IMG/VR virus record: IMGVR_UViG_2600255005_000007
Location: 1 to 8,899 of that record
Source of the DNA: a virus
Taxonomy: Duplodnaviria > Heunggongvirae > Uroviricota > Caudoviricetes
Direction: 5' to 3' (one strand)
Length of the DNA: 8,899 nt
Of this stretch, positions 1 to 8,899 are shown piece by piece. The position numbers and the translations under genes are program-made. The notes below the pieces were generated by a model that worked only from the letters and a program-made list of their open reading frames with translations, searched no databases and was not told where the DNA came from. Numbering within the stretch: the stretch's first letter is position 1; the number at the start of each line of letters is the position of its first letter.

Positions 1-480
1 GTGATAAAGCGTGTTTTGCAGGCTGCGTTCGATGTCATCAACGCTGCGCCGCTGGCTGGCAGAGAGCGAGGCAATAAACGCTTCGGCTTTTTCCGGCGAC
101 TGCTGGCGATAAAGATTCGCCAGCCCGCGCACGGCGTTAGTGTTGCTACTGTCCATACGCAGCGTCTGCTGGTAATAGCGTTCAGCGGCGGGGTAATCTT
201 TGCGCGCCATCGCCACATCGCCCAGCCCCAGCACCGCATAGCTGTCGGCGTTATCGACATTGCGCGCCTGCTGGAACAGGCGTTCTGCCCGGTCGGGATT
301 ATTGGCTTTCAGCGCAGCATCGCCCTGCTGGATCGCCAGCCAGTAGCGATTCACCTTCAGCAGACTGTTCCATTTGTCGTTGTTGCTGCTGTGCGGATCC
401 AGCGCGAGGGCTTTTTCCAGATTCGCCACCGCATTAGCACGATCGCCATTCTGAGAATACGCCTGCCCCAGCGCCCCCGG
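1..480 (-). pseudogene. bcsC: Cellulose synthase operon protein C (BcsC) TPR-region fragment; 5' part of the gene missing (replaced by inserted DNA at about 480), 3' part continues beyond the window start
   Basis: Reverse-complement translation of 1-477 reads GALGQAYSQNGDRANAVANLEKALALDPHSSNNDKWNSLLKVNRYWLAIQQGDAALKANNPDRAERLFQQARNVDNADSYAVLGLGDVAMARKDYPAAERYYQQTLRMDSSNTNAVRGLANLYRQQSPEKAEAFIASLSASQRRSVDDIERSLQNTLYH, which I recognise as the TPR region of enterobacterial BcsC. Similarity stops at 478-483 and an in-frame stop follows at 496-498. Absent from the ORF track because the frame runs off the window edge. Confidence 0.7.
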
Positions 481-2088
481 AACGCGGCGAAAACATCAGA
501 GACGAATGCAGGTAACAGCGCGAAAGCGGCAGCTTCTTCAAAAACAGCCGCACAAAATGCAGCAACAGCGGCAGAACATTCAGAGACAAATGCCCGTGCG
601 TCAGAGGAAGCCTCCGCAGACAGTGAAGAGGCTTCCCGCCGTAATGCAGAGTCAGCCGCTGAAAATGCCGGAATCGCCACCACAAAAGCGCGGGAGGCCG
701 CAGCAGACGCAACAAAGGCCGGGCAGAAAAAGGATGAGGCTCTGTCGGCAGCGACACGAGCAGAAAAGGCGGCAGACCGCGCAGAAGCCGCAGCGGAAGT
801 GACTGCAGAGCCCTATGCGAATATAGTGCCGCCGCTGCCTGATGTATGGATACCGTTTAACGATACACTGGATATGATTACGGGGTTTTCGCCATCATAT
901 AAAAAGATTGTTATTGGTGACGATGAAATAACAATGCCAGGCGACAAGATTGTTAAGTTTAAACGTGCTTCAACAGCAACGTATATTAATAAGTCCGGCC
1001 AACTCAAGCTTGCTGAAGTTGATGAACCGCGATTTGAGCGCGATGGCTTATTGATTGAAGGACAGAGGACAAATTATCTGAGGAACTCAAATAAACCAGA
1101 CTCATGGACTGTTCATTCCGCACTGAATAAAACATTTGGCACTGATAAACAGGGGTTCAATTATGCCACGGTGACACCCACGGAAAGTATAGTGGGAACA
1201 ACAGGTGGCTATACTGTGCATGGTGTGGTTGCAGCAGACAGATTCCCGCTGGCAAGTGGTGAATGTTTCACTTTTTCGTGCCGGGTTAAAGGCGCTAAAG
1301 CACGATGCAGGTTAAGAGTTTCAGTTATTATTGGTGGAACAGATACATTCTCTGCTGACTCTTATCTTGATCTGGATACCCGGATCGCAACAGTAAGCGG
1401 TAATACATCCCTTATAACAGCCAAAGCTGAACAACAGGGCGAGTGGACCTACTATGAGGCCACTTATACAGCTAATACGGACATTGATACCGTTAACTGT
1501 GCTTTTTATATGACAAATAAAATAAGTAATGAGCCATTCTATGATGACTCAACATTAACCATGACGACGCCGCAAATTGAACTGGGCAATACGGCATCGT
1601 CATTTATTGTAACTACAATGCCAACAACACGCGCAAGTGATGTGGTTACTATCCCATCGCAGAATAACCTGTCAACACGGCCTTTTACGGTATTGTGCGA
1701 AGTAAGCAGGAACTGGAGTACACCGCCCAATGTTGCGCCAAGGATATTTGATGTTGGAGGGCACAGTATTGATGATAATTATTTATCGCTGGGGTTTGTT
1801 TCAACAGGAAAGATAAGCGCCAACGTAGGAATGGTTCAGCCACAAATTTCCTCAGATGGAGAAAGGTTCATTGTGGGTGTGAGAGCTAAATCTGATTTAT
1901 CAGTAAATGCAATATGCAGTGGTAATTATACAACAAACCTTAATGGTAAAATATTTGGAGTTACAGCAACATCGTACCGGTTTGGTGGGCAGACCGCAGC
2001 AGGAACGCGTCATTTGTTTGGACACATCAGAAATTTCAGAGTCTGGTTTAAAGAATTAAATGACAGGCAAATCAAGGAGGCAGTATGA
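481..2088 (+). CDS. Phage side tail fibre protein, shaft repeats plus C-terminal receptor-binding region; 5'-truncated and fused in frame to antisense bcsC sequence (ORF 1..2088)
   Basis: From about 490 the + frame gives Ser/Ala/Glu-rich SETNA-type repeats (SETNAGNSAKAAASSKTAAQNAATAAEHSETNARASEEASADSEEASRRNAESAAEN...) typical of lambdoid side-tail-fibre shafts, then about 430 aa ending in FGHIRNFRVWFKELNDRQIKE (2017-2085), which resembles the C-terminal motif of concanavalin-A/LamG-like lectin domains. No N-terminal tail-attachment domain is present. The first 160 codons of the ORF are antisense bcsC and not fibre sequence. Confidence 0.7.
   Translation, partial: NAAKTSETNAGNSAKAAASSKTAAQNAATAAEHSETNARASEEASADSEEASRRNAESAAENAGIATTKAREAAADATKAGQKKDEALSAATRAEKAADRAEAAAEVTAEPYANIVPPLPDVWIPFNDTLDMITGFSPSYKKIVIGDDEITMPGDKIVKFKRASTATYINKSGQLKLAEVDEPRFERDGLLIEGQRTNYLRNSNKPDSWTVHSALNKTFGTDKQGFNYATVTPTESIVGTTGGYTVHGVVAADRFPLASGECFTFSCRVKGAKARCRLRVSVIIGGTDTFSADSYLDLDTRIATVSGNTSLITAKAEQQGEWTYYEATYTANTDIDTVNCAFYMTNKISNEPFYDDSTLTMTTPQIELGNTASSFIVTTMPTTRASDVVTIPSQNNLSTRPFTVLCEVSRNWSTPPNVAPRIFDVGGHSIDDNYLSLGFVSTGKISANVGMVQPQISSDGERFIVGVRAKSDLSVNAICSGNYTTNLNGKIFGVTATSYRFGGQTAAGTRHLFGHIRNFRVWFKELNDRQIKEAV
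2074..2080 (+). promoter_or_regulatory. Shine-Dalgarno AAGGAGG for ORF 2085..2363
   Basis: AAGGAGG 4 nt upstream of ATG 2085; the ATG overlaps the fibre stop (ATGA 2085-2088), suggesting translational coupling. Confidence 0.55.
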
Positions 2089-2363
2089 AAGATTTAACTT
2101 TGAAATTTCCTGGTAACAGAGAGTTTAAATCCTTCCTGTCATCTCTTGACTGGGAGGAAGATGAAGACCTCCAGAATAAACTGTTAGTCGATGAAATTGG
2201 TTTCACCTACACAGAAACAGGGGTAACTGAAGAGGGAGAACCTGTCTGTATCCGGAATAACGGTTATTTTGTCAACATTCGCATTCTTGATGACTTGTTT
2301 GATGTTTCTGTATTCTCTGATTATGTCGTGGAGCTGGAAACACCGCTTCGGGAATGGAGCTGA
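2085..2363 (+). CDS. Hypothetical small acidic protein (92 aa) coupled to the tail fibre gene
   Basis: Complete ORF with strong SD and start overlapping the upstream stop. Asp/Glu-rich. No similarity to classic Tfa tail-fibre assembly proteins that I can recognise. Confidence 0.55.
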   Translation: MKDLTLKFPGNREFKSFLSSLDWEEDEDLQNKLLVDEIGFTYTETGVTEEGEPVCIRNNGYFVNIRILDDLFDVSVFSDYVVELETPLREWS

Positions 2364-2370
2364 AAGGAGG
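2364..2370 (+). promoter_or_regulatory. Shine-Dalgarno AAGGAGG for ORF 2376..2669
   Basis: AAGGAGG followed by 5 nt spacer and ATG 2376. Confidence 0.55.
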
Positions 2371-2375
2371 AAATA

Positions 2376-2669
2376 ATGGATATAAGCCCCTTACTTCATG
2401 CACTTTGTGCTGTGGCTGCGCAGATACTGGTTGGTCTTTTTACCGGAAACTGGGCTTACGGAGCGATAGCCGGTTGTACGTTCTTCATTGCGCGTGAACA
2501 TACCCAGGCAGAATATCGCTGGATTGAAATGTTCGGGCATGGCAAGCGAATGAATATGCCGTGGTGGGGCGGATTTGATCCGCGCGCGTGGGATGTGGCA
2601 AGCCTGATGGATTTTGCTGTGCCGGTGGTGGCGTGTCTGCTGGTCTGGCTGTTGGTTAATCGTGGGTGA
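2376..2669 (+). CDS. Hypothetical small membrane protein (97 aa, two predicted hydrophobic helices)
   Basis: Strong SD; hydrophobic stretches LLHALCAVAAQILVGLFTGNWAYGAIAGCTFFIA and LMDFAVPVVACLLVWLLV; lies 12 nt after the previous ORF. Confidence 0.5.
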   Translation: MDISPLLHALCAVAAQILVGLFTGNWAYGAIAGCTFFIAREHTQAEYRWIEMFGHGKRMNMPWWGGFDPRAWDVASLMDFAVPVVACLLVWLLVNRG

Positions 2670-2700
2670 AAAAAGGTGGGCTGTATATGCAACGGAGGAA

Positions 2701-3033
2701 GAAACCCGGGAGAAAGCGCGGATACAGAAACCGGGTGCCTGTCACATCTTCCGGCACTCGATGGCAACGCAGATGCTGGACAACGGCGCAGACACGCGGC
2801 ACATCCAGGCGATCCTCGGCCATGAGAAGCTGGAGACGACGCAGATCTACACGCGGGTAGCCATCGGTCACTTACAGGAAGTTCACGCGCTGACGCACCC
2901 GGAAGAGCAGGACGAGACGTGGACGGATCGGCACGTTGCGGATGCGGTGGCAGAGCCGCAGACGCGCCGGGAGCGTAATCACGCAGAGATGGAGCGGGCG
3001 CTGGTCAGCAGGAAACGCCGCCGGAGACGCTGA
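2701..3033 (+). pseudogene. Tyrosine recombinase (phage integrase / XerCD-like) C-terminal fragment, 5'-truncated
   Basis: Translation ETREKARIQKPGACHIFRHSMATQMLDNGADTRHIQAILGHEKLETTQIYTRVAIGHLQEVHALTHP matches the C-terminal catalytic box of tyrosine recombinases (H-x-x-R-H, LGH, TTQIYT with the catalytic Tyr). No N-terminal or core-binding domain lies upstream, where fibre-associated ORFs sit instead. The reported ORF 2614..3033 begins inside the previous gene in another frame. Confidence 0.55.
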
Positions 3034-3993
3034 TGCAGGCCGGAAGCGTGATCATCGCCGGACTGCCTGAAAAGTTAGCGGGCGATCCCTGTAAGGCCGT
3101 GGGGTGAGGTGCAGGGCAGACAACCGCCTTCCCTGGCGGTTGACTGCCCCCTGCCAGCGGAGTGCGCGGGGGTAAATGCCGTTCGCCCCGTGGAGGCAGG
3201 CGTGTCCCATGCGGCCACGGCGCACGGGGCAAACGTCATTCAACATAATGCGGGGGATTATGCGCACTCTCGCCGGGTGGCAACGGCGGCGAACCCGACC
3301 CGCTGTGCGCGGCTCGTGTTCGCACAATCCGCATTATGTCTTGCGCCCCCGCGTTCAGCCCCTTAACCAGTGCCACGCGCAGCAGCTCGCTGGCGCTCGC
3401 TCCTGCCGTCTCAGCGGCGGTGTCCTTCCTCAGCGCCGCAGTCGCCGCCATCCCTGGCGGCTCCGGTGCCGTTCTGCGGCGGCGTCATCGTGTGGCAGTC
3501 AGTCAGAAAAGGGTGTCGGCCTGGCGGCCTCCGCTTGTAAGGGCTTTATGCCCGCCCGGCGTCGTCTGGCTGCGGCGGCTCGTGCCGCGCAAAAAGGCCG
3601 CGCGTCACTCGTTCCCGCCTCGCCAGCTTCCGCTGCCCGCCCCGGTCCGGTGTGGTCATGCAAAGGCCAGCTCCGGTCAGGCAGCGGTGCCACAGAGCGC
3701 CGTTCCGTCGCTTGCGGACTCTCTGCCGCCCGCACCCGCAGACCCCGCGCCGTGGCCCCGCCATGCCGCCGGAGGCGGCCTGGCGGCCCCCCGTCACGGG
3801 TTGCCGGAAACGGACTTAGTGGAAAGCGGAATGACAGGTTCGTGGCGGTGGTGATATGGTGAGCGGGCGTGAAAACGCGCGTCGGGAAAGCCGGGTTAAC
3901 GTGCTGTTAAATAATTAAAAGGTGATAGCCGTGAAGCCAGAAACGGCGCGGGCGGTAGCGTGTTAAAAAGTATGACCCGCACCGGATCGTCCC

Positions 3994-4401
3994 GATGACC
4001 CGATAGGGCTGAGAGGCGGATTAAACTTATACCAATACGCGCCTAATCCAGTAAACTGGATCGATCCTTTGGGTTTGAAATGTGGGCAACCTGAATGGAC
4101 AAATCATGGATACAAACATTTTCCTCCAAAAAACAAATCATGGAAGGATATAATTAAATCAACAAAATCAGGCCCGGCAAAATATTCTCCAGATATTGAT
4201 ATTAAAACGTTGGAATACGATGTTTTTAATACAGGCACACCTGTTACGAACGGTAAACCATGGAAAGTAAAAGATATGGGAAAAGTTATTGGGGCCAGTG
4301 AGGGTAAAGAATCTCAATGGGTTCGAGTTGAACTTAGCGGTGGGACAATACATGGACATCCTATATCAATCGATGAATTCCGAAGGCTAACAACATCATG
4401 A
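3994..4401 (+). CDS. Orphan Rhs C-terminal toxin module 1 (core-end [27 protein letters not shown] at 3997-4077 plus about 105 aa toxin domain of unassigned family); no start codon, no upstream core
   Basis: Frame opens after TGA 3973-3975. Conserved Rhs core-end peptide, then [15 protein letters not shown]...[19 protein letters not shown]. First in-frame ATG lies deep inside the domain; the ORF track start at 4069 is a TTG. Confidence 0.65.
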
Positions 4402-4691
4402 ACATTGATTTCTTAGGAAAAAAAGGGAATATAGTTTTTAATGACTTCTCCCTGAAACAAAGCATCCCTCTTAATGAACAGCGAGATGAACTTAAGGAAG
4501 ATATGCTCCAGGTTGAATATCCTGGTGGGTATCTTTTGGATGTTGGGTGGCGACCATCTTTTGATATAAATGGGAAGTTTTATATTTGTTTAATAAAGGA
4601 TTTTGATTGGGATTATCCCATTTATAATGGTTCTGCGAAAGATATTGTCTCATTATTATTTGAAATTAACCAAGCTATAAATAAACTTTAA
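4398..4691 (+). CDS. Putative immunity protein for Rhs-CT 1 (97 aa)
   Basis: ATG overlaps toxin stop (ATGA 4398-4401); AT-rich small ORF directly downstream of a polymorphic toxin domain; followed by a terminator hairpin. Confidence 0.6.
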
Positions 4692-4707
4692 ATAAACTTT
4701 AAAAAAA

Positions 4708-4746
4708 CTGGGAAGAAAATTAAATCTTCCCGGCTTTTTATTATTT
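4708..4746. terminator. Bidirectional intrinsic terminator between convergent immunity gene 1 and SymE-like gene 1
   Basis: Stem CTGGGAAGA (4708-4716) / TCTTCCCGG (4725-4733) with 8 nt loop, followed by CTTTTTATTATTT on + strand and preceded by AAAAAAA (a T-tract on the minus strand). Confidence 0.55.
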
Positions 4747-5006
4747 AACTCTCGTTCAGCACACTAAACATCCCGTTCCGCATCCCCTTAACCGCCTGTT
4801 TGACCTGGTAAAGTTCCCTGCGCAGTTCCTGTACTTCGTTGTTATCCGCTAGCAGGATCAGGCAACCTTCCGAGATCTTCACGGTAACGCCCGTGCCGAT
4901 CTCAAATCCCGCTTCTCTCAGCCATTTGGCGCTGATTTTGATCACCGGCGTGTCGCTTCGGTTGGGCAGATAGCCCACGGTACAGTGGCGCTGTGTTTTG
5001 GAAATG
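4719..5006. repeat. Direct repeat copy A (about 288 bp), carrying part of the terminator and the SymE-like ORF
   Basis: 4719-5006 aligns with 7311-7599 at roughly 97 percent identity by eye (a handful of substitutions and one extra T). Similarity ends abruptly after ...GTTTTGGAAATG. Confidence 0.8.
4745..4978 (-). CDS. SymE-family (type I toxin SymE-like, AbrB/SpoVT-fold) protein, probably 5'-truncated
   Basis: Translation GYLPNRSDTPVIKISAKWLREAGFEIGTGVTVKISEGCLILLADNNEVQELRRELYQVKQ aligns with the conserved core of E. coli SymE (TV.Y...P.I...WL..AGF..GT.V.VK..EGC..L) as I recall it. Starts at GTG with no SD; frame is open upstream to a stop at 5063-5065 with no ATG. Confidence 0.6.
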   Translation of the reverse strand: MGYLPNRSDTPVIKISAKWLREAGFEIGTGVTVKISEGCLILLADNNEVQELRRELYQVKQAVKGMRNGMFSVLNES

Positions 5007-5171
5007 ATATTTTTGTATTTAACCTGCTGATTAGATAGTAAAATAAACTTCGTGCAGATAGCTTACTTTGTCAGGGTGTGGCGGTAGCGTATGAACTATG
5101 ACGTGATGGTTTTAGTGATTTATAGACGAAACTGACAGTACGATCCGGACTTCGATTAGATTGCGCGATTT

Positions 5172-6801: not shown

Positions 6802-7260
6802 ATGAAAAATATTAGAGAGTTAAATAATGCAGAATTCTCCGGGCTTATTAACAATGCTTTACCATTCTTACATATTAATCCTATAAGCGAAGCTGTTTGT
6901 ATTCATGCAGAAGCTTATAAAAGTGGTATTGATGTTAACTATATCCGTTGCAACGTTGACTGGGAGGGGTTTTCTTCTTTAACTGAAGCGTTGGAAACGT
7001 TATACCATGAATTATTTAAAGATGGTATTCCATCAGGCGAATTGTTGTTTTTTTACCCGTTTGATAGAACAAAGAAAGGGAATTATGGTGTTATACTGGA
7101 ATCATCTCAGCTATTAGATTTCTTAATAAAAGAGCATTTGAAGATTTATCCTGAATGTTTTAATGTAGAAATGTGTAGCTTCGGTTTTTATTTTATAGAT
7201 CACGAAATATTTTACGGCATGGAACATCCTGATTTTTTATATAGTTTCTGTGTAAGATAA
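6802..7260 (+). CDS. Putative immunity protein for Rhs-CT 3 (152 aa)
   Basis: ATG immediately follows the toxin stop (TAA-ATG at 6799-6804); AT-rich; followed by a terminator hairpin. Confidence 0.6.
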   Translation: MKNIRELNNAEFSGLINNALPFLHINPISEAVCIHAEAYKSGIDVNYIRCNVDWEGFSSLTEALETLYHELFKDGIPSGELLFFYPFDRTKKGNYGVILESSQLLDFLIKEHLKIYPECFNVEMCSFGFYFIDHEIFYGMEHPDFLYSFCVR

Positions 7261-7296
7261 TTAATAAAGTGAGGAGTATATTTCTCTTTCTTAATC

Positions 7297-7335
7297 GCCG
7301 GGAAAGGTAGATTAAATCTTCCCGGCTTTTTTATT
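7297..7335 (+). terminator. Intrinsic terminator after immunity gene 3
   Basis: Perfect 8 bp stem GCCGGGAA (7297-7304) / TTCCCGGC (7319-7326) followed by TTTTTTATT. No T-tract in the minus-strand direction. Confidence 0.55.
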
Positions 7336-7599
7336 ATTTAACGTTCGTTCAGCACACTAAACATCCCGTCCCGCATCCCCTTAACAGCCTGTTTAACCTG
7401 ATAAAGTTCCCTGCGCAGTTCCTGTACTTCGTTGTTATCCGCTAGCAGGATCAGGCAACCTTCCGAGATCTTCACGGTAACGCCCGTGCCGATCTCAAAT
7501 CCCGCTTCTCTCAGCCATTTGGCGCTGATTTTGATCACCGGCGTGTCGCTGCGGTTGGGCAGATAGCCCACGGTACAGTGGCGCTGTGTTTTGGAAATG
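7311..7599. repeat. Direct repeat copy B (about 289 bp), partner of 4719-5006
   Basis: See copy A. The right end abuts GC-rich primase-like sequence at 7599/7600. Confidence 0.8.
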
Positions 7600-7619
7600 G
7601 TGGGCCGCACTGCTGGCAC
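7338..7619 (-). CDS. SymE-family toxin-like protein, copy 2; the N-terminal 10 codons come from unrelated sequence beyond the repeat boundary
   Basis: Near-identical to copy 1 over the shared part (ISKTQRHCTVGYLPNRSDTPVIKISAKWLREAGFEIGTGVTVKISEGCLILLADNNEVQELRRELYQVKQAVKGMRDGMFSVLNER). The ORF start at 7619 is a GTG lying antisense inside the primase-like region, with no SD. Confidence 0.55.
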   Translation of the reverse strand: MPAVRPTISKTQRHCTVGYLPNRSDTPVIKISAKWLREAGFEIGTGVTVKISEGCLILLADNNEVQELRRELYQVKQAVKGMRDGMFSVLNER

Positions 7620-8899
7620 ACGGCGTCAGGCAGGTACTGATCGCCTACGACAACGATCCGGCGGGCAATGAGGCGGCGGTGAAACTGGCTTCTTCCTTAG
7701 CCGCTTCCGGGATCGCCACGTTCCGCGTACTGTTCCCGGCGGGCATGGATGCGAACGGTTATCTGTGCAGTGTGGCAGAGCCGGAACAGGCGTTCAGTCT
7801 GTTGCTGGATGGCGCGGTGCCCATGAGTGACCTGGCCGATGCGGAGAGTATCGCGCCGCAGGCCAGCGCGGAGCCTGCACACCTGACTTCATTAGCTGCC
7901 GGGGTTGCGGTCTTACCCGCAGCCGCCGCGCCTGCACCGGGCGTCAGCGTGGAAACCCTGGCCGATGGCGAACTGATGGTAGCCTTACCCGGCGAACGCT
8001 GGACTATCAGGGGCGTAAGCCGCAAACCGAACGTCGCCGCGATGAAGGTCAATGCGCAGGTGCTGGACACCAACAGCGGCGTGGTGTTCGCTGATGCGGT
8101 GGATATGATGAGCGCCCGCAGCCGTTCCGGTTATGCGCGGGCCGCAGCGGCAGAGCTTGGGCTTGCCGAAGGCGACCTGCGCCGTTCGCTGGGTAAGGTG
8201 CTGCTGGCGCTGGAGCACTGGCAGGCGGCACCGGAGCCGGAGAGCGTCGCCCCGGAGATGACGCCGGAAGATCGGGAGGCGGCGCTGGATCTGCTGCGCG
8301 ACGAGTGTCTTGCCGGGCGCATCGCTTCTGATATGGCGGCGTGTGGCGTGGTGGGTGAGTCCACCAACCTGACGGCGGCGTATCTGGCGGCGGTGTCACG
8401 CAAACTGGAGCGCCCGCTTGCCGTTCTCATCCAGTCGTCGAGCGCGGCGGGTAAGTCCAGCTTAATGGATGCGGTGCTCAATCTGATCCCGCCAGAGGAA
8501 CGGCTGCAATACAGCGCCATGACCGGGCAGAGCCTGTTCTACCTCGGCGAAACCAACCTGCAACACAAGATCCTCGCCATCGCAGAAGAAGAAGGTGTGC
8601 GCCAGGCGGCGTATGCGCTGAAACTGTTGCAATCAGACGGGGAACTGACCATCGCCAGTACGGGCAAGGACGACGCCAGCGGCAACCTGGTCACCAAACA
8701 GTACACGGTGAAAGGCCCGGTGATGCTGATGCTGACCACCACGGCGATCGACGTCGATGAAGAACTGTTAAACCGCTGCCTGGTGCTGACGGTGAACGAG
8801 TCGCGGGAGCAGACGGAGGCCGAACTGCTCTTTAACAATTTATCAGACAATCTGTGTGGGCACTCGAAGATACGGATTCTTAACGTCCTCGGACGATAA
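7600..8899 (+). CDS. Toprim-domain primase-like protein with downstream P-loop-like region, N-terminally truncated at the repeat junction (integrative/conjugative-element type replication or mobilisation protein)
   Basis: VLIAYDNDPAGNEAAVKL resembles the Toprim DxD motif region; a Walker-A-like SSSAAGKSSL follows after an Ala/Pro-rich linker. GC-rich coding sequence with good third-position GC bias. The conserved Toprim Glu region expected upstream is missing. The reported start at 7586 is a GTG inside the SymE repeat. Confidence 0.55.

Follow-up and report, generated by a model that had tools for sequence, protein, structure and literature searches.

Rhs and other polymorphic toxins diversify by swapping their C-terminal tips, and orphan tips accumulate with their immunity genes in arrays; the arrival of new tips has been attributed loosely to recombination. 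The stretch of DNA analysed here (8,899 nucleotides in full length, hereafter the window) contains such a tip with its immunity gene and, between a recombinase gene and this cassette, a segment of about 0.9 kb (3034-3990) for which the initial annotation weighed three options, namely that it could give rise to a structured RNA, that it could bind a protein or resemble an origin, or that it could be the end of a GC-rich integrative element in decay. What is this segment, and what could it do for the DNA that carries it? In this study, we compared its copies across bacterial genomes, and our results indicate that it is a conserved control region, rich in hairpins, which belongs to a mobile element that appears to be undescribed and lies between Rhs toxin cassettes.

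Results

The segment differs sharply in composition from its surroundings, with a GC content of 0.66-0.71 across 3001-3900 versus 0.33-0.46 in the flanking cassettes, and the GC-richness first noticed for 3034-3990 is real, at 66-71%. The view that it holds no credible coding frame was also upheld. No Pfam match was obtained for any of its eight long ORFs, on both strands, 27 of the 29 indels among close copies are not multiples of three, and the substitutions are without codon periodicity, while the adjacent xerC, which served as the control, has a third-position excess. On these three grounds, a protein-coding reading was rejected. RefSeq annotates nothing within the segment in most genomes and a "hypothetical protein" in a minority of them, with ORFs that vary from genome to genome; a reading frame with YD repeats or Rhs-core homology is absent from the segment, except for the frameshifted stretch at 3950-4009. 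The features of the window are collected in Table 1.

Table 1. Features of the window discussed in the text, with the evidence for each.
Feature	Positions	Strand	Basis
XerC-family tyrosine recombinase gene, 3' end (~109 codons), truncated at 2706	2706-3033	+	Homology to E. coli D6 xerC from 2706
GC-rich non-coding cis region of the element	3034-3949		GC, Pfam, indels, periodicity, linkage to xerC
Hairpin H1: GGGCAGAC-AACCGCC-TTCCCT-GGCGGTT-GACTGCCC, with conserved A.A / T.T mismatch	3114-3149	-	Inverted repeat and alignment
Three-way domain; closing helix P1 (3168-3171 with 3346-3349) around H2 and H3	3164-3353	-	RNAalifold, pair counts
Hairpin H2, stem 3176-3191 with 3224-3239, variable loop	3176-3239	-	Covariation
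dif-like site, extended 9-nt centre: AGTGCGCATAA-TCCCCCGCA-TTATGTTGAAT	3238-3268	-	E. coli dif arms
Hairpin H3 (the inverted repeat first annotated); outer stem 3242-3251/3331-3340, asymmetric internal loop, inner stem 3257-3264/3321-3328	3242-3340	-	Inverted repeat, covariation
Inverted second dif-like site, 6-nt centre: gTTCGCACAA-TCCGCA-TTATGTCTTGC	3317-3345	+	Read directly from sequence
Hypervariable patch just past the hairpin domain, where copy relationships switch	3363-3440		Copy comparison
Conserved islands: 3443-3460 (second CCGCC-ATCCCT-GGCGG hairpin), 3513-3535 (GGCC-TGGC-GGCC), 3706-3742	3441-3800		Alignment
Predicted sigma-70-like promoter toward the toxin/immunity cassette	3831-3860	+	ATGACA-18-TATGGT with TG; 1 site vs 0.1 expected
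Frameshifted Rhs core-end relic (..YDPH.G.....DPIGL)	3950-4009	+	Alignment to the core-end relics that precede other orphan cassettes
Cargo: Rhs C-terminal toxin tip (to 4401) and immunity gene (4398-4691)	3996-4691	+	PxxxxDPxGL motif at expected distance from xerC; ORFs; RHS fragments annotated in E. coli
SymE-family toxin gene closing the cassette, 5' truncated	4745-5006	-	SymE annotation in homologous loci; antisense Ssr1/isrA Rfam matches
DnaG-type primase / P-loop protein of the next unit, internal part; HTH gene and first ~290 codons missing	7602-8820	+	91% DNA identity to D6 primase

Comparison of the copies placed the segment in a repeating unit composed of an HTH repressor gene (minus strand), a gene for a 940-aa DnaG-type primase/P-loop protein, xerC, the GC-rich spacer and then the cargo, which runs from an Rhs core-end relic through an Rhs-CT toxin and an immunity gene to SymE (minus strand). 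The window fits this backbone order, with the 3' end of xerC before the segment and part of a primase gene after the cargo. In E. coli, 56 of 5426 genomes carry the unit in their Rhs loci, in one to six places each, and it was also found in Citrobacter, Erwinia, Photorhabdus and Xenorhabdus. The segment itself occupies 195 places in 56 E. coli genomes, its left and right halves sharing the same places in the same genomes, and in Enterobacterales (E. coli, Citrobacter, Photorhabdus, Xenorhabdus) it invariably lies between xerC and the Rhs core-end motif. The XerC-family gene is directly upstream of it in every copy, and the order in which xerC follows the primase gene and precedes the segment is the same in loci L001, L004, L005 and L083-L085 and in those of Photorhabdus and Xenorhabdus. 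The copies that we examined are located at rhsE and rhsC, where SymE lies on one side and Rhs core-end fragments on the other, and the arrays examined terminate in CT-immunity-SymE beside pptA or ybgA. Beyond these bacteria, the HTH-primase-xerC trio was found at 77 loci in many phyla, often in tandem with a period of 7-9 kb; ten cargo ORFs from distant phyla gave only one weak Tox-SHH match and one HTH match.

The full-length xerC homologue scores 528 bits on the NCBIfam model PRK01287 ("XerC") and matches Pfam Phage_integrase. The full-length primase has Zn-ribbon, Toprim and P-loop domains; its homologues number 4478, most of these entries being partial and on contigs of 1-5 kb, and for its C-terminal half a PDB sequence search gave no match and the AlphaFold model was too poor for a structure search (pLDDT 58). 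The repressor is of the Cro/cI type (RstR-like), and neither a rolling-circle Rep nor a relaxase was seen among the annotated genes of the unit. An 8758-bp circular record corresponds to one repeat unit, although it might have arisen when a tandem repeat was assembled. At its cargo side, the sequence conserved in the element stops at GACCCGATAGGGCTG, the copies being identical through ...GATAGGGCTG and divergent beyond, and through the core-end relic the element is homologous to rhs genes. A search for an unoccupied locus, using the concatenated flanks as query, returned only further occupied loci.

Two other origins for this DNA were considered and rejected. A phage origin was dismissed since no match was obtained in 50,697 phage records and the recombinase has no close relative in IMG/VR, where the best match is 33% identical. 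A match to an IncHI2 plasmid proved to be an assembly chimera, bounded by Ns and carrying the flanks of a chromosomal ISKpn21 copy. Repeats of the element break short-read assemblies and also yield chimeric records.

The perfect inverted repeat initially described is indeed present, with ACATAATGCGG (3243-3253) complementary to 3329-3339 and with arms that reach to about 3242-3268 and 3316-3340, including an internal asymmetry, around a spacer of about 47 nt. This repeat is H3, and two further hairpins that had not been listed, at 3114-3149 (H1) and 3175-3240 (H2), accompany it. Using RNAalifold and pair counts over an alignment of 23 related copies, we found that positions 3110-3355 form covarying hairpins, with changes on both sides in 20 of the 49 predicted pairs. 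Cells of the alignment were paired in 96.7% of cases, compared with 87.6 ± 0.6 in shuffles (0 of 500 as high) and 35-44% when the partners were slid. Between clades, the inner stem of H1 changes from AACCGCC/GGCGGTT to AGCGCGC/GCGCACT and to TGCGCGC/GCGCACA, and in H2 both sides have changed in 9 of the 13 pairs, for example from GCCCCGTG/CACGGGGC to GGGCGGCC/GGCCGCCC. The arms of H3 are likewise conserved and covary in the 23 related copies, and over 24 distinct copies they give 391 Watson-Crick cells, 34 minus-strand G.T, no A.C and 7 mismatches. A covariance model (R1) recovers the three-way domain downstream of xerC in distant loci, and the copies found with it carry the hairpin core into Beta- and Gammaproteobacteria.

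Folding was one of the checks put forward for this region. Folded as single-stranded DNA, the 197 nt of 3160-3356 reach -66.8 kcal/mol on the minus strand (z = -6.7, 0 of 200 shuffles as stable), so that the repeat exceeds what chance would give. For the hairpin domain, the plus strand reaches -57.5 kcal/mol, so that the minus strand folds better by 9 kcal/mol. The same asymmetry is seen in the wobble cells (G.U/G.T), of which 71 are on the minus and 8 on the plus strand, or 70 and 11 with structures predicted on both strands. Since they occur almost only on the minus strand, the wobble pairs show that this is the folded strand; they do not tell whether it folds as DNA or whether it is recombined.

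H3 carries two inverted dif-like sites. The one with the extended centre, at 3238-3268 on the minus strand, matches the arms of E. coli dif in 20 of 22 specified bases, which none of 200 shuffles does; its arms are kept in L040, L065, L071 and others, and its centre spans 7-11 nt in the copies examined. Copies from Beta- and Gammaproteobacteria recovered with model R1 retain the arms GCGCATAA...TTATGTT. The arms of the plus-strand site, TTCGCACAA-TCCGCA-TTATGTC, fit the duplex Xer core of two arms of about 11 nt around a 6-8 bp centre, although its core TCGCACAATCCGCATTATGT as a short pattern alone is not above chance. This second site appears, from reading the six copies examined in several clades, to keep a 6-nt centre. 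Every copy has H3 intact and in an internal position, and the halves of the segment were never found apart; H3 is therefore not a chromosomal junction, unlike attP of CTXphi. This candidate role was discarded on the 195 places shared by the two halves in 56 genomes and on the examined arrays, which end in CT-immunity-SymE by pptA or ybgA. No dif-like sites that could serve as attL or attR were found in the units beyond those of H3. The "YAPNP" codons of Rhs, as read from the sequence, hold GCGCATA on the opposite strand, without a second arm.

At the edge of the hairpin domain, the relationships among copies switch. Identity between the window and L004, its neighbour in tandem, is 98% over 3034-3242 and 77% over 3340-3560, and two "alleles" around the hypervariable patch are common to copies in different combinations; for this breakpoint pattern, homologous recombination within conserved blocks fits equally as well as site-specific exchange. 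Farther on, 3561-3800 is 94-99% identical among all E. coli-clade copies, and blocks of 37 nt retain 89-97% identity between Escherichia and Photorhabdus or Xenorhabdus. Outside 3110-3355 the sequence is conserved and covariation is scarce. Run-based scans across and within clades gave short helices only, and full-length RNAalifold within clades gave no discrimination between strands, so we make no structural claim for 3355-3950.

The loose direct repeats proposed near the end of the segment did not withstand comparison: GGTGATA does occur twice (3850 and 3921), but at least two copies are also found in 39 of 200 shuffles, Tandem Repeats Finder reports nothing on the segment, and the words, which are at chance level, are not conserved outside the Escherichia clade. 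The proposed covariance-model search was run against Rfam 15 and matched no family, with no hit at E ≤ 1 inside 3034-3990 on either strand; the sole real Rfam matches in the window are the SymE-antisense Ssr1/isrA.

Discussion

Our analysis retains part of what was first suggested for this segment and revises the rest. Among the three options, a recombinase-binding type of site and a GC-rich mobile element both find support. The segment is not decayed, since from Escherichia to Xenorhabdus its copies show conservation and compensatory changes, and the core extends into Beta- and Gammaproteobacteria; nor is it the end of an element in the E. coli arrays, as its two halves are never found apart. 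Setting side by side the non-coding status, the conservation, the covariation and its strand asymmetry, the dif-likeness and the linkage to the recombinase and primase genes, we lean towards reading the segment as a cis region with a folded Xer-type recombination site and accessory hairpins, on which the neighbouring recombinase would act when copies are circular or in tandem. We infer that this recombinase acts on H3, that it does so on the folded strand, and what the resulting reaction would be.

The proposed mechanism would work as follows. The backbone of the element comprises the repressor, the primase/P-loop protein and the XerC-family recombinase, to which an Rhs tip, its immunity gene and SymE are added as cargo in Enterobacterales. 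H3 consists of two inverted dif-like cores, one with a canonical 6-nt centre and the other with one extended to 7-11 nt, and its stem, once folded, would have a "XerC-type" arm on the inside and a "XerD-type" arm on the outside of a bulged centre. The folded strand, which might come from cruciform extrusion or replication intermediates, could be acted on by the recombinase encoded next to it, perhaps with host Xer proteins, and the folded site would then serve to fuse copies of the element in circles or in tandem and to resolve them. In this model H1, H2 and the closing helix P1 would play an accessory architectural part. The 3' part of the segment carries the conserved islands (a candidate origin for the primase), the predicted outward promoter and the Rhs core-end relic. 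The model is analogous to attP(+) of CTXphi and to attC of integrons, which are recombined as folded single strands. The switch of copy relationships at the edge of the hairpin domain and the circular record of one unit speak for it, with the reservations given above; the internal position of H3 and the failure to see, among the annotated genes of the unit, a rolling-circle Rep or relaxase that would produce single strands speak against it.

H3 has the architecture of the attachment site of CTXphi, the cholera toxin phage and an IMEX. In CTXphi, attP(+) contains two inverted dif-like sites, with centres of 12 bp and 5-7 bp, 90 bp apart (PMC4246890). Here too, two inverted dif-like sites lie tens of nucleotides apart and pair within one strand (3242-3264 with 3321-3340), with one over-long centre (7-11 nt versus 12 bp), one of 6 nt versus 5-7 bp, and a bulge at the centre of the stem; an RstR-type repressor and tandem arrays are further points in common. 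Importantly, there are clear differences. CTXphi encodes no recombinase and relies on host XerCD, whereas this element, which is not a filamentous phage, encodes a XerC-family enzyme itself. The target of CTXphi is chromosomal dif, with the hairpin at the prophage junction, while the element resides in Rhs loci with its hairpin internal and intact. Single-stranded DNA is provided in CTXphi by rolling-circle replication (RstA), and no such gene was seen here, only the primase. With integrons, the element has in common an imperfect one-strand hairpin with unpaired central bases, next to an XerC/D-related tyrosine recombinase, and arrays of small cassettes. The recombinase nevertheless scores below the integron-integrase thresholds (124.6 bits on TIGR02249 against a cut-off of 265, and 71 against 435 on PRK15417), the arms are dif-like rather than the R and L boxes of attC, and there is one hairpin per unit of 7-9 kb with its own recombinase and primase, rather than one per promoterless cassette.

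The same data could also reflect a structured non-coding RNA, made from the minus strand and antisense to the 3' region of xerC. Such an RNA, formed by a three-way junction (P1, H2, H3) and H1, would regulate the element, for instance the expression of the recombinase or primase, the copy number or the expression of the cassette. Compensatory changes in 20 of 49 pairs with G.U on one strand are a classic RNA signature, and a compact multi-branch domain of 190 nt is recovered by covariance model in distant taxa. The strand asymmetry does not single out RNA, however, because G.T wobble is tolerated in folded DNA too. Moreover, apart from the lack of an Rfam match in 3034-3990, no minus-strand promoter-like site was found in the segment, and the only minus-strand terminator-like site (3988-3974) is upstream of the region. 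An RNA also fails to explain why, across proteobacterial classes, one arm of H3 keeps the dif consensus (GCGCATAA / TTATGTT) and the other drifts via wobble, and we consider this reading unlikely.

The dif-like sites could also be ordinary duplex sites, in which case the site with the 6-nt centre would be a resolution or integration core like cer, psi or dif and no folding would be involved; the second inverted copy and the flanking palindromes would be accessory protein-binding sites that co-evolve with their proteins. The layout here, a recombinase gene beside roughly 200 bp of accessory flank, is like that of cer and psi, and elements replicating as circles need a resolution site. H3 is comparable to dif, cer, psi and pdif modules in its 11-nt arms (GCGCATAA / TTATGTT) around a 6-8 bp centre and in its flanking accessory DNA, one arm appears to have the canonical 6-nt centre in every copy examined, and a shared role in resolving circular multimers is likely. 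Those systems, however, are single duplex sites acted on by host XerCD, either with the accessory proteins PepA, ArgR and ArcA or with FtsK, whereas here we have a covarying inverted pair with strand-specific wobble. Co-evolving protein sites should vary randomly, but where the arms differ they do so by G.T on one strand (34 versus 0 in H3, 71 versus 8 over the domain), and whole stems of H1 and H2 change between clades with pairing kept, which is hard to reconcile with sequence-specific recognition by a protein. We therefore judge duplex sites without folding quite unlikely as the full explanation.

Another proposal would make the segment a replication origin or priming signal for the primase of the element, its hairpins being single-strand initiation signals and the dif-like repeat either incidental or a separate resolution site. 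Strand-specific, GC-rich hairpins are typical of priming signals, and those seen here, in an element with its own primase, are in this respect like the G4 origin and ssiA/ssiB of RSF1010; the difference is that these hairpins include recombinase-type sites. A DnaG-type primase fused to a P-loop domain, the circular record of one unit and the islands at 3441-3800, otherwise unexplained, all speak for an origin. Against it, iterons and an AT-rich unwinding element were not found in the segment, the P-loop domain is not identifiable as a helicase (no PDB sequence match, poor structure model), and the hairpin domain adjoins the gene for the recombinase, not that for the primase. As the whole function of the segment an origin is very unlikely, but it is compatible with the folded recombination site that we favour and not exclusive of it. 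Finally, that the segment is a decayed gene, either an eroded Rhs core or a frameshifted coding sequence in which hairpins arose by chance in GC-rich DNA, is barely credible: its final 45-60 nt are a frameshifted core-end relic and a minority of RefSeq genomes carry a gene call, but Pfam, indel phase, codon periodicity and the disagreement of the annotated ORFs between genomes oppose it, and blocks up to 97% conserved across genera together with compensatory changes are unlike a decaying pseudogene.

The loci concerned are those of the known Rhs orphan arrays (Jackson et al., 2009, PMC2935791; Zhang et al., 2012, PMC3482391), in which a full-length rhs gene precedes orphan CT/immunity modules, each beginning at the DPxGL core end. 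Recombinase genes of the XerC/D type beside some polyimmunity loci were already noted by Zhang et al. (2012, PMC3482391), in which the word "primase" is absent. What the parts consulted of these accounts of "C-terminal displacement" (PMC2935791; PMC3482391) do not describe is the primase-recombinase backbone, the structured spacer and the dif-like hairpin, and a description of the element was not found in the literature searched.

Conclusion

Our results tie the Rhs arrays to a concrete conserved machine, with a recombinase, a primase and a structured site of CTXphi-like design. As a broader and tentative proposal, about which we have more doubt than confidence, the trio of repressor, primase and XerC, together with its folded dif-like hairpin, may represent a widespread, so far undescribed class of small elements (7-9 kb) that replicate as circles, rely on a Xer-type recombinase of their own acting at a folded single-stranded DNA site, and carry polymorphic-toxin tips, along with the immunity genes, into rhs and related loci; they would then be the physical vehicle of "C-terminal displacement" and of the orphan arrays. 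CTXphi is the best-understood case of single-stranded DNA integration, and this would be a relative in design with its own enzyme and a different address. If the folded site works in the way we propose, single-strand Xer-type recombination would reach beyond filamentous phages and integrons, and there would be a testable mechanism for the traffic of toxin cassettes in E. coli, Photorhabdus, Xenorhabdus and, judging by the distribution of the trio, many other phyla.

Results

Window 3034-4060 is 99.9% identical to the Escherichia ruysiae locus L005. Of 5426 complete E. coli genomes, 56 contain spacer copies about 92% identical, at one to six places per genome, and these copies are annotated, without exception, as xerC, then nothing or a hypothetical, then an RHS fragment. 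The rhsE locus of E. coli D6 starts with vgrG, a full-length rhs and an immunity gene; the repeated units that come after consist of an orphan Rhs-CT, immunity, SymE(-), HTH(-), a 940-aa primase, xerC, a GC-rich spacer of ~950 bp and an Rhs core-end fragment. Single-copy examples in rhsE and rhsC keep this order, and CT-immunity-SymE closes the arrays examined, adjoining pptA or ybgA. Against NCBIfam PRK01287 'XerC' the recombinase reaches 528 bits. The primase combines a DnaG zinc ribbon and a Toprim domain with a C-terminal P-loop half without an assigned fold, on which the precomputed Pfam family PF27228 lies (homologues P0001-P0120); RstR is the family closest to the repressor. Entries for primase homologues are mostly 'partial' and on 1-5 kb contigs, so assemblies regularly break at these repeats.

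Most Rhs-CT/immunity orphan modules, whether or not a primase-xerC block is nearby, are closed by a SymE-family gene in opposite orientation (E. coli loci L001, L083, L084 and L085; rhsE and rhsC), and SymE may be a second homology arm in cassette exchange. Rfam matches to Ssr1 (260 and 265 bits; gathering score 820) and to isrA lie antisense to the two SymE genes of the window and probably mark the region in which these type I toxin genes have a SymR-like antisense RNA.

Features of the spacer and its surroundings (window positions)
Feature	Position	Strand	Remark
Hairpin H1	3114-3149		just 5' of the inverted repeat
Hairpin H2	3175-3240		just 5' of the inverted repeat
Helix P1	3168-3171 with 3346-3349		short; encloses H2 and H3, giving a three-way domain
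Hairpin H3	3242-3340		inverted repeat; arms about 3242-3268 and 3316-3340
Small hairpin CCGCC-[T/A]TCCCT-GGCGG	3124-3139; 3445-3460		first copy inside H1
Predicted sigma-70-like promoter	3831-3860		faces the cassette; promoter prediction
Terminator-like hairpin and T run	3974-3988	-	inside the Rhs core-end relic
Ssr1 and isrA matches	4575-5008; 7057-7601	+	antisense to SymE

G+C is 66-71% over window 3001-3900 against 33-46% in the cassettes 3' of the spacer. The long ORFs of the spacer overlap one another in several frames and none has a Pfam match; 27 of 29 indels among close copies are of non-triplet length, and substitutions fall evenly on the three phases. The control, the xerC coding sequence next to it, has the expected third-position excess. 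The spacer is therefore non-coding, as the initial annotation had proposed. The inverted repeat that it described (ACATAATGCGG / CCGCATTATGT) is present at the coordinates it gave and, past an asymmetric interruption, extends to the longer arms listed in the table. Its loose direct repeats did not hold up: two copies of GGTGATA are also reached in 39 of 200 shuffles, and a search for tandem repeats was empty.

An alignment of spacers from three clades shows conservation in islands, and some islands reach 89-97% identity between genera over 37 nt; the differences within 3095-3365 are compensatory. The H1 stem changes from AACCGCC/GGCGGTT to AGCGCGC/GCGCACT and TGCGCGC/GCGCACA, that of H2 from GCCCCGTG/CACGGGGC to GGGCGGCC/GGCCGCCC, and the inner stem of H3 from ATTATGCG/CGCATAAT through ATTAAGCG/CGCTTAAT and ATTATACG/CGTATAAT to ATTAGGCG/CGCCTAAT. 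RNAalifold, on a 23-sequence minus-strand alignment, gave 49 pairs, 20 of them with changes on both sides; pairing holds in 96.7% of cells, against 87.6 +/- 0.6 in column shuffles (0/500) and 35-44% with partners slid, and the covariation score is 0.281 against 0.127. Outside the hairpin domain little covariation could be demonstrated, although conserved sequence is present there. The TCCCT loop of the small hairpin, which may be a protein-recognition motif, is kept in Photorhabdus too.

The fold is strand-specific. In paired columns, G.T cells number 71 (11 pairs) in the minus-strand reading and 8 (3 pairs) in the plus-strand reading, or 70 and 11 when the predictions made separately for each strand are combined. 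Across 24 distinct copies of H3, distant ones included, we counted 391 Watson-Crick cells, 34 minus-strand G.T, no A.C and 7 mismatches. As single-stranded DNA, 3160-3356 folds at -66.8 kcal/mol on the minus strand (z = -6.7) and at -57.5 on the plus strand (z = -3.0). From this excess of minus-strand G.T and the better minus-strand fold, we infer that the functional molecule would be a single strand of minus-strand sequence, either DNA or RNA.

H3 also resembles a pair of inverted dif sites. Its minus-strand arm reads AGTGCGCATAA-TCCCCCGCA-TTATGTTGAAT, with a centre of 9 nt rather than 6, and agrees at 20 of 22 positions with the XerC/XerD arms of E. coli dif (GGTGCGCATAA / TTATGTTAAAT; 0 of 200 shuffles match); the other arm, in plus-strand reading, has a 6-nt centre (TTCGCACAA-TCCGCA-TTATGTC). 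Folding places the 'XerD-type' arm in the outer helix and the 'XerC-type' arm in the inner one, with the centre as an asymmetric, C-rich internal loop. A covariance model of P1-H3-H2 found the domain on the same strand just 3' of the recombinase gene in Erwinia (locus L028), and likewise 3' of the recombinase in the Beta- and Gammaproteobacterial loci L045, L048, L037, L065, L034, L071 and L040 (22-69 bits). The recombinases of these distant loci are only 44-49% identical to that of E. coli, one arm retains GCGCATAA / TTATGTT, and in the copies read the centre is 6 nt at one site and 7-11 nt at the other. No dif-like site other than H3 was present in the units.

A scan of one genome per species gave 77 recombinase loci, from Proteobacteria to Acidobacteria, Actinobacteria, Planctomycetes and Verrucomicrobia. 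The primase gene lies 5' of the recombinase gene in nearly all, an HTH gene could be detected upstream of about one in three, and units are frequently tandem with a period of 7-9 kb. Behind the recombinase stop codon, the Escherichia, Citrobacter, Photorhabdus and Xenorhabdus loci have 0.83-1.38 kb of GC-rich DNA (58-73% GC in otherwise AT-rich genomes) and then the Rhs motif PxxxxDPxGL. In distant phyla (L078, a Verrucomicrobia MAG, at 7376-7939; L031, L035, L044, L068) ORFs lie between xerC and the next unit, without Pfam matches apart from one HTH hit and one weak hit to Tox-SHH (HNH/EndoVII polymorphic toxin; E = 0.0024); the latter hints that toxin tips are cargo there too.

The window is homologous to the unit from a sharp boundary at 2706 onwards, with breaks at 7600 and 8820; these junctions reflect either genuine rearrangement or chimeric assembly of repeated DNA from short reads. 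Window 1-2705 carries a TPR-like gene fragment (-) and then phage tail-fibre genes up to the junction inside xerC. At 7600 the sequence passes from the SymE 5' end straight into the interior of the primase gene, so that the HTH gene and ~290 primase codons are absent. The final 79 nt (8820-8899) may correspond to an rrn leader. The SymE 5' word GTGTTTTGGAAATG continues differently in window 4990-5010 and 7590-7602, in L001 (~7430) and in L084, namely into a full SymE and HTH, an AT-rich linker and Rhs core-end relic, or the internal primase point, and may be a recurrent breakpoint.

Phage records and IMG/VR contained no close relative. The 'plasmid' matches are two. L002 (NZ_CP055112.1, Shigella flexneri), a circular record of 8758 bp entered as a plasmid, matches a single repeat unit exactly (HTH, SymE, immunity, ISEc1, spacer, xerC, primase), and represents either a real circle, excised or replicating, or a tandem repeat closed by the assembler. 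In L003 (the IncHI2 record pGD27-37, NZ_MN232191.1) a window-like copy of 3005-3505 lies at 2356-2621 and 4897-5132, bounded by N characters and split by ISKpn21. We rejected a plasmid home for this copy: it is an assembly chimera, which looks like the flanks of a chromosomal ISKpn21 copy. ISKpn21 is flanked there by a 9-bp duplication, ACTCTCGCC, equivalent to window 3266-3274, so it is able to insert in the H3 loop.

Discussion

The layout of H3 is that of the CTXphi attachment region, where two inverse dif-like sites, 90 bp apart and with centres of 12 bp and 5-7 bp (9 nt and 6 nt in the window), pair within the (+) single strand to form a Xer recombination substrate (PMC4246890). Rhs tip displacement is well described (PMC2935791), and XerC/D genes beside polyimmunity loci were mentioned in passing by Zhang et al. 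(PMC3482391). The primase-recombinase element, its structured spacer and the dif-like hairpin had no description in the literature searched, whose coverage is incomplete and no proof of absence. Folded Xer-type and attC sites are already known.

A structured RNA from the minus strand would account for the covariation and the one-sided wobble as well as a folded site does; it leaves the retention of the dif arms unexplained, and neither the promoter search nor Rfam, which matched the segment to no known RNA family, supports it. The terminator-like hairpin would halt antisense transcription from the cassette ahead of the spacer. An origin or priming signal is compatible with a folded recombination site rather than exclusive of it. 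Purely duplex sites that do not fold explain neither the one-sided wobble nor the wholesale turnover of the H1 and H2 stems. A decayed gene is contradicted by the lack of a Pfam match, the non-triplet indels and the even substitution phases.

H3 is not itself the junction with the chromosome, because both arms are in every copy and the two halves of the spacer (left, 3040-3340; right, 3600-3950) are found at 195 places each, in the same 56 genomes. Element-conserved sequence runs on through the frameshifted Rhs core-end relic to GACCCGATAGGGCTG (about 4009), past which copies split into different toxin tips. We therefore consider entry into rhs loci through core-end homology, and perhaps SymE homology, more likely than entry over H3. 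Between the window copy and L004, the tandem neighbour from the same genome, identity is 98% over 3034-3242 but 77% over 3340-3560, with the switch between 3306 and 3363; copies whose recombinase tails are only ~50% identical reach 94-100% over 3561-4009. These patterns fit recombination between elements at or near H3, and homologous exchange inside conserved blocks would give the same picture.

Based on our results, we propose that the adjacent XerC-family recombinase would act on H3, possibly with host Xer proteins since the arms are nearly identical to host dif. The substrate would be the folded minus strand or the extruded hairpin, given the strand-specific wobble and the conserved bulge. 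H1, H2 and P1 would supply the architecture of the recombination site, other conserved islands of the spacer may serve the primase, and the predicted promoter faces the cassette. The reaction at H3 would join or resolve circular and tandem copies, which would account for the arrays as well as for the one-unit circle.
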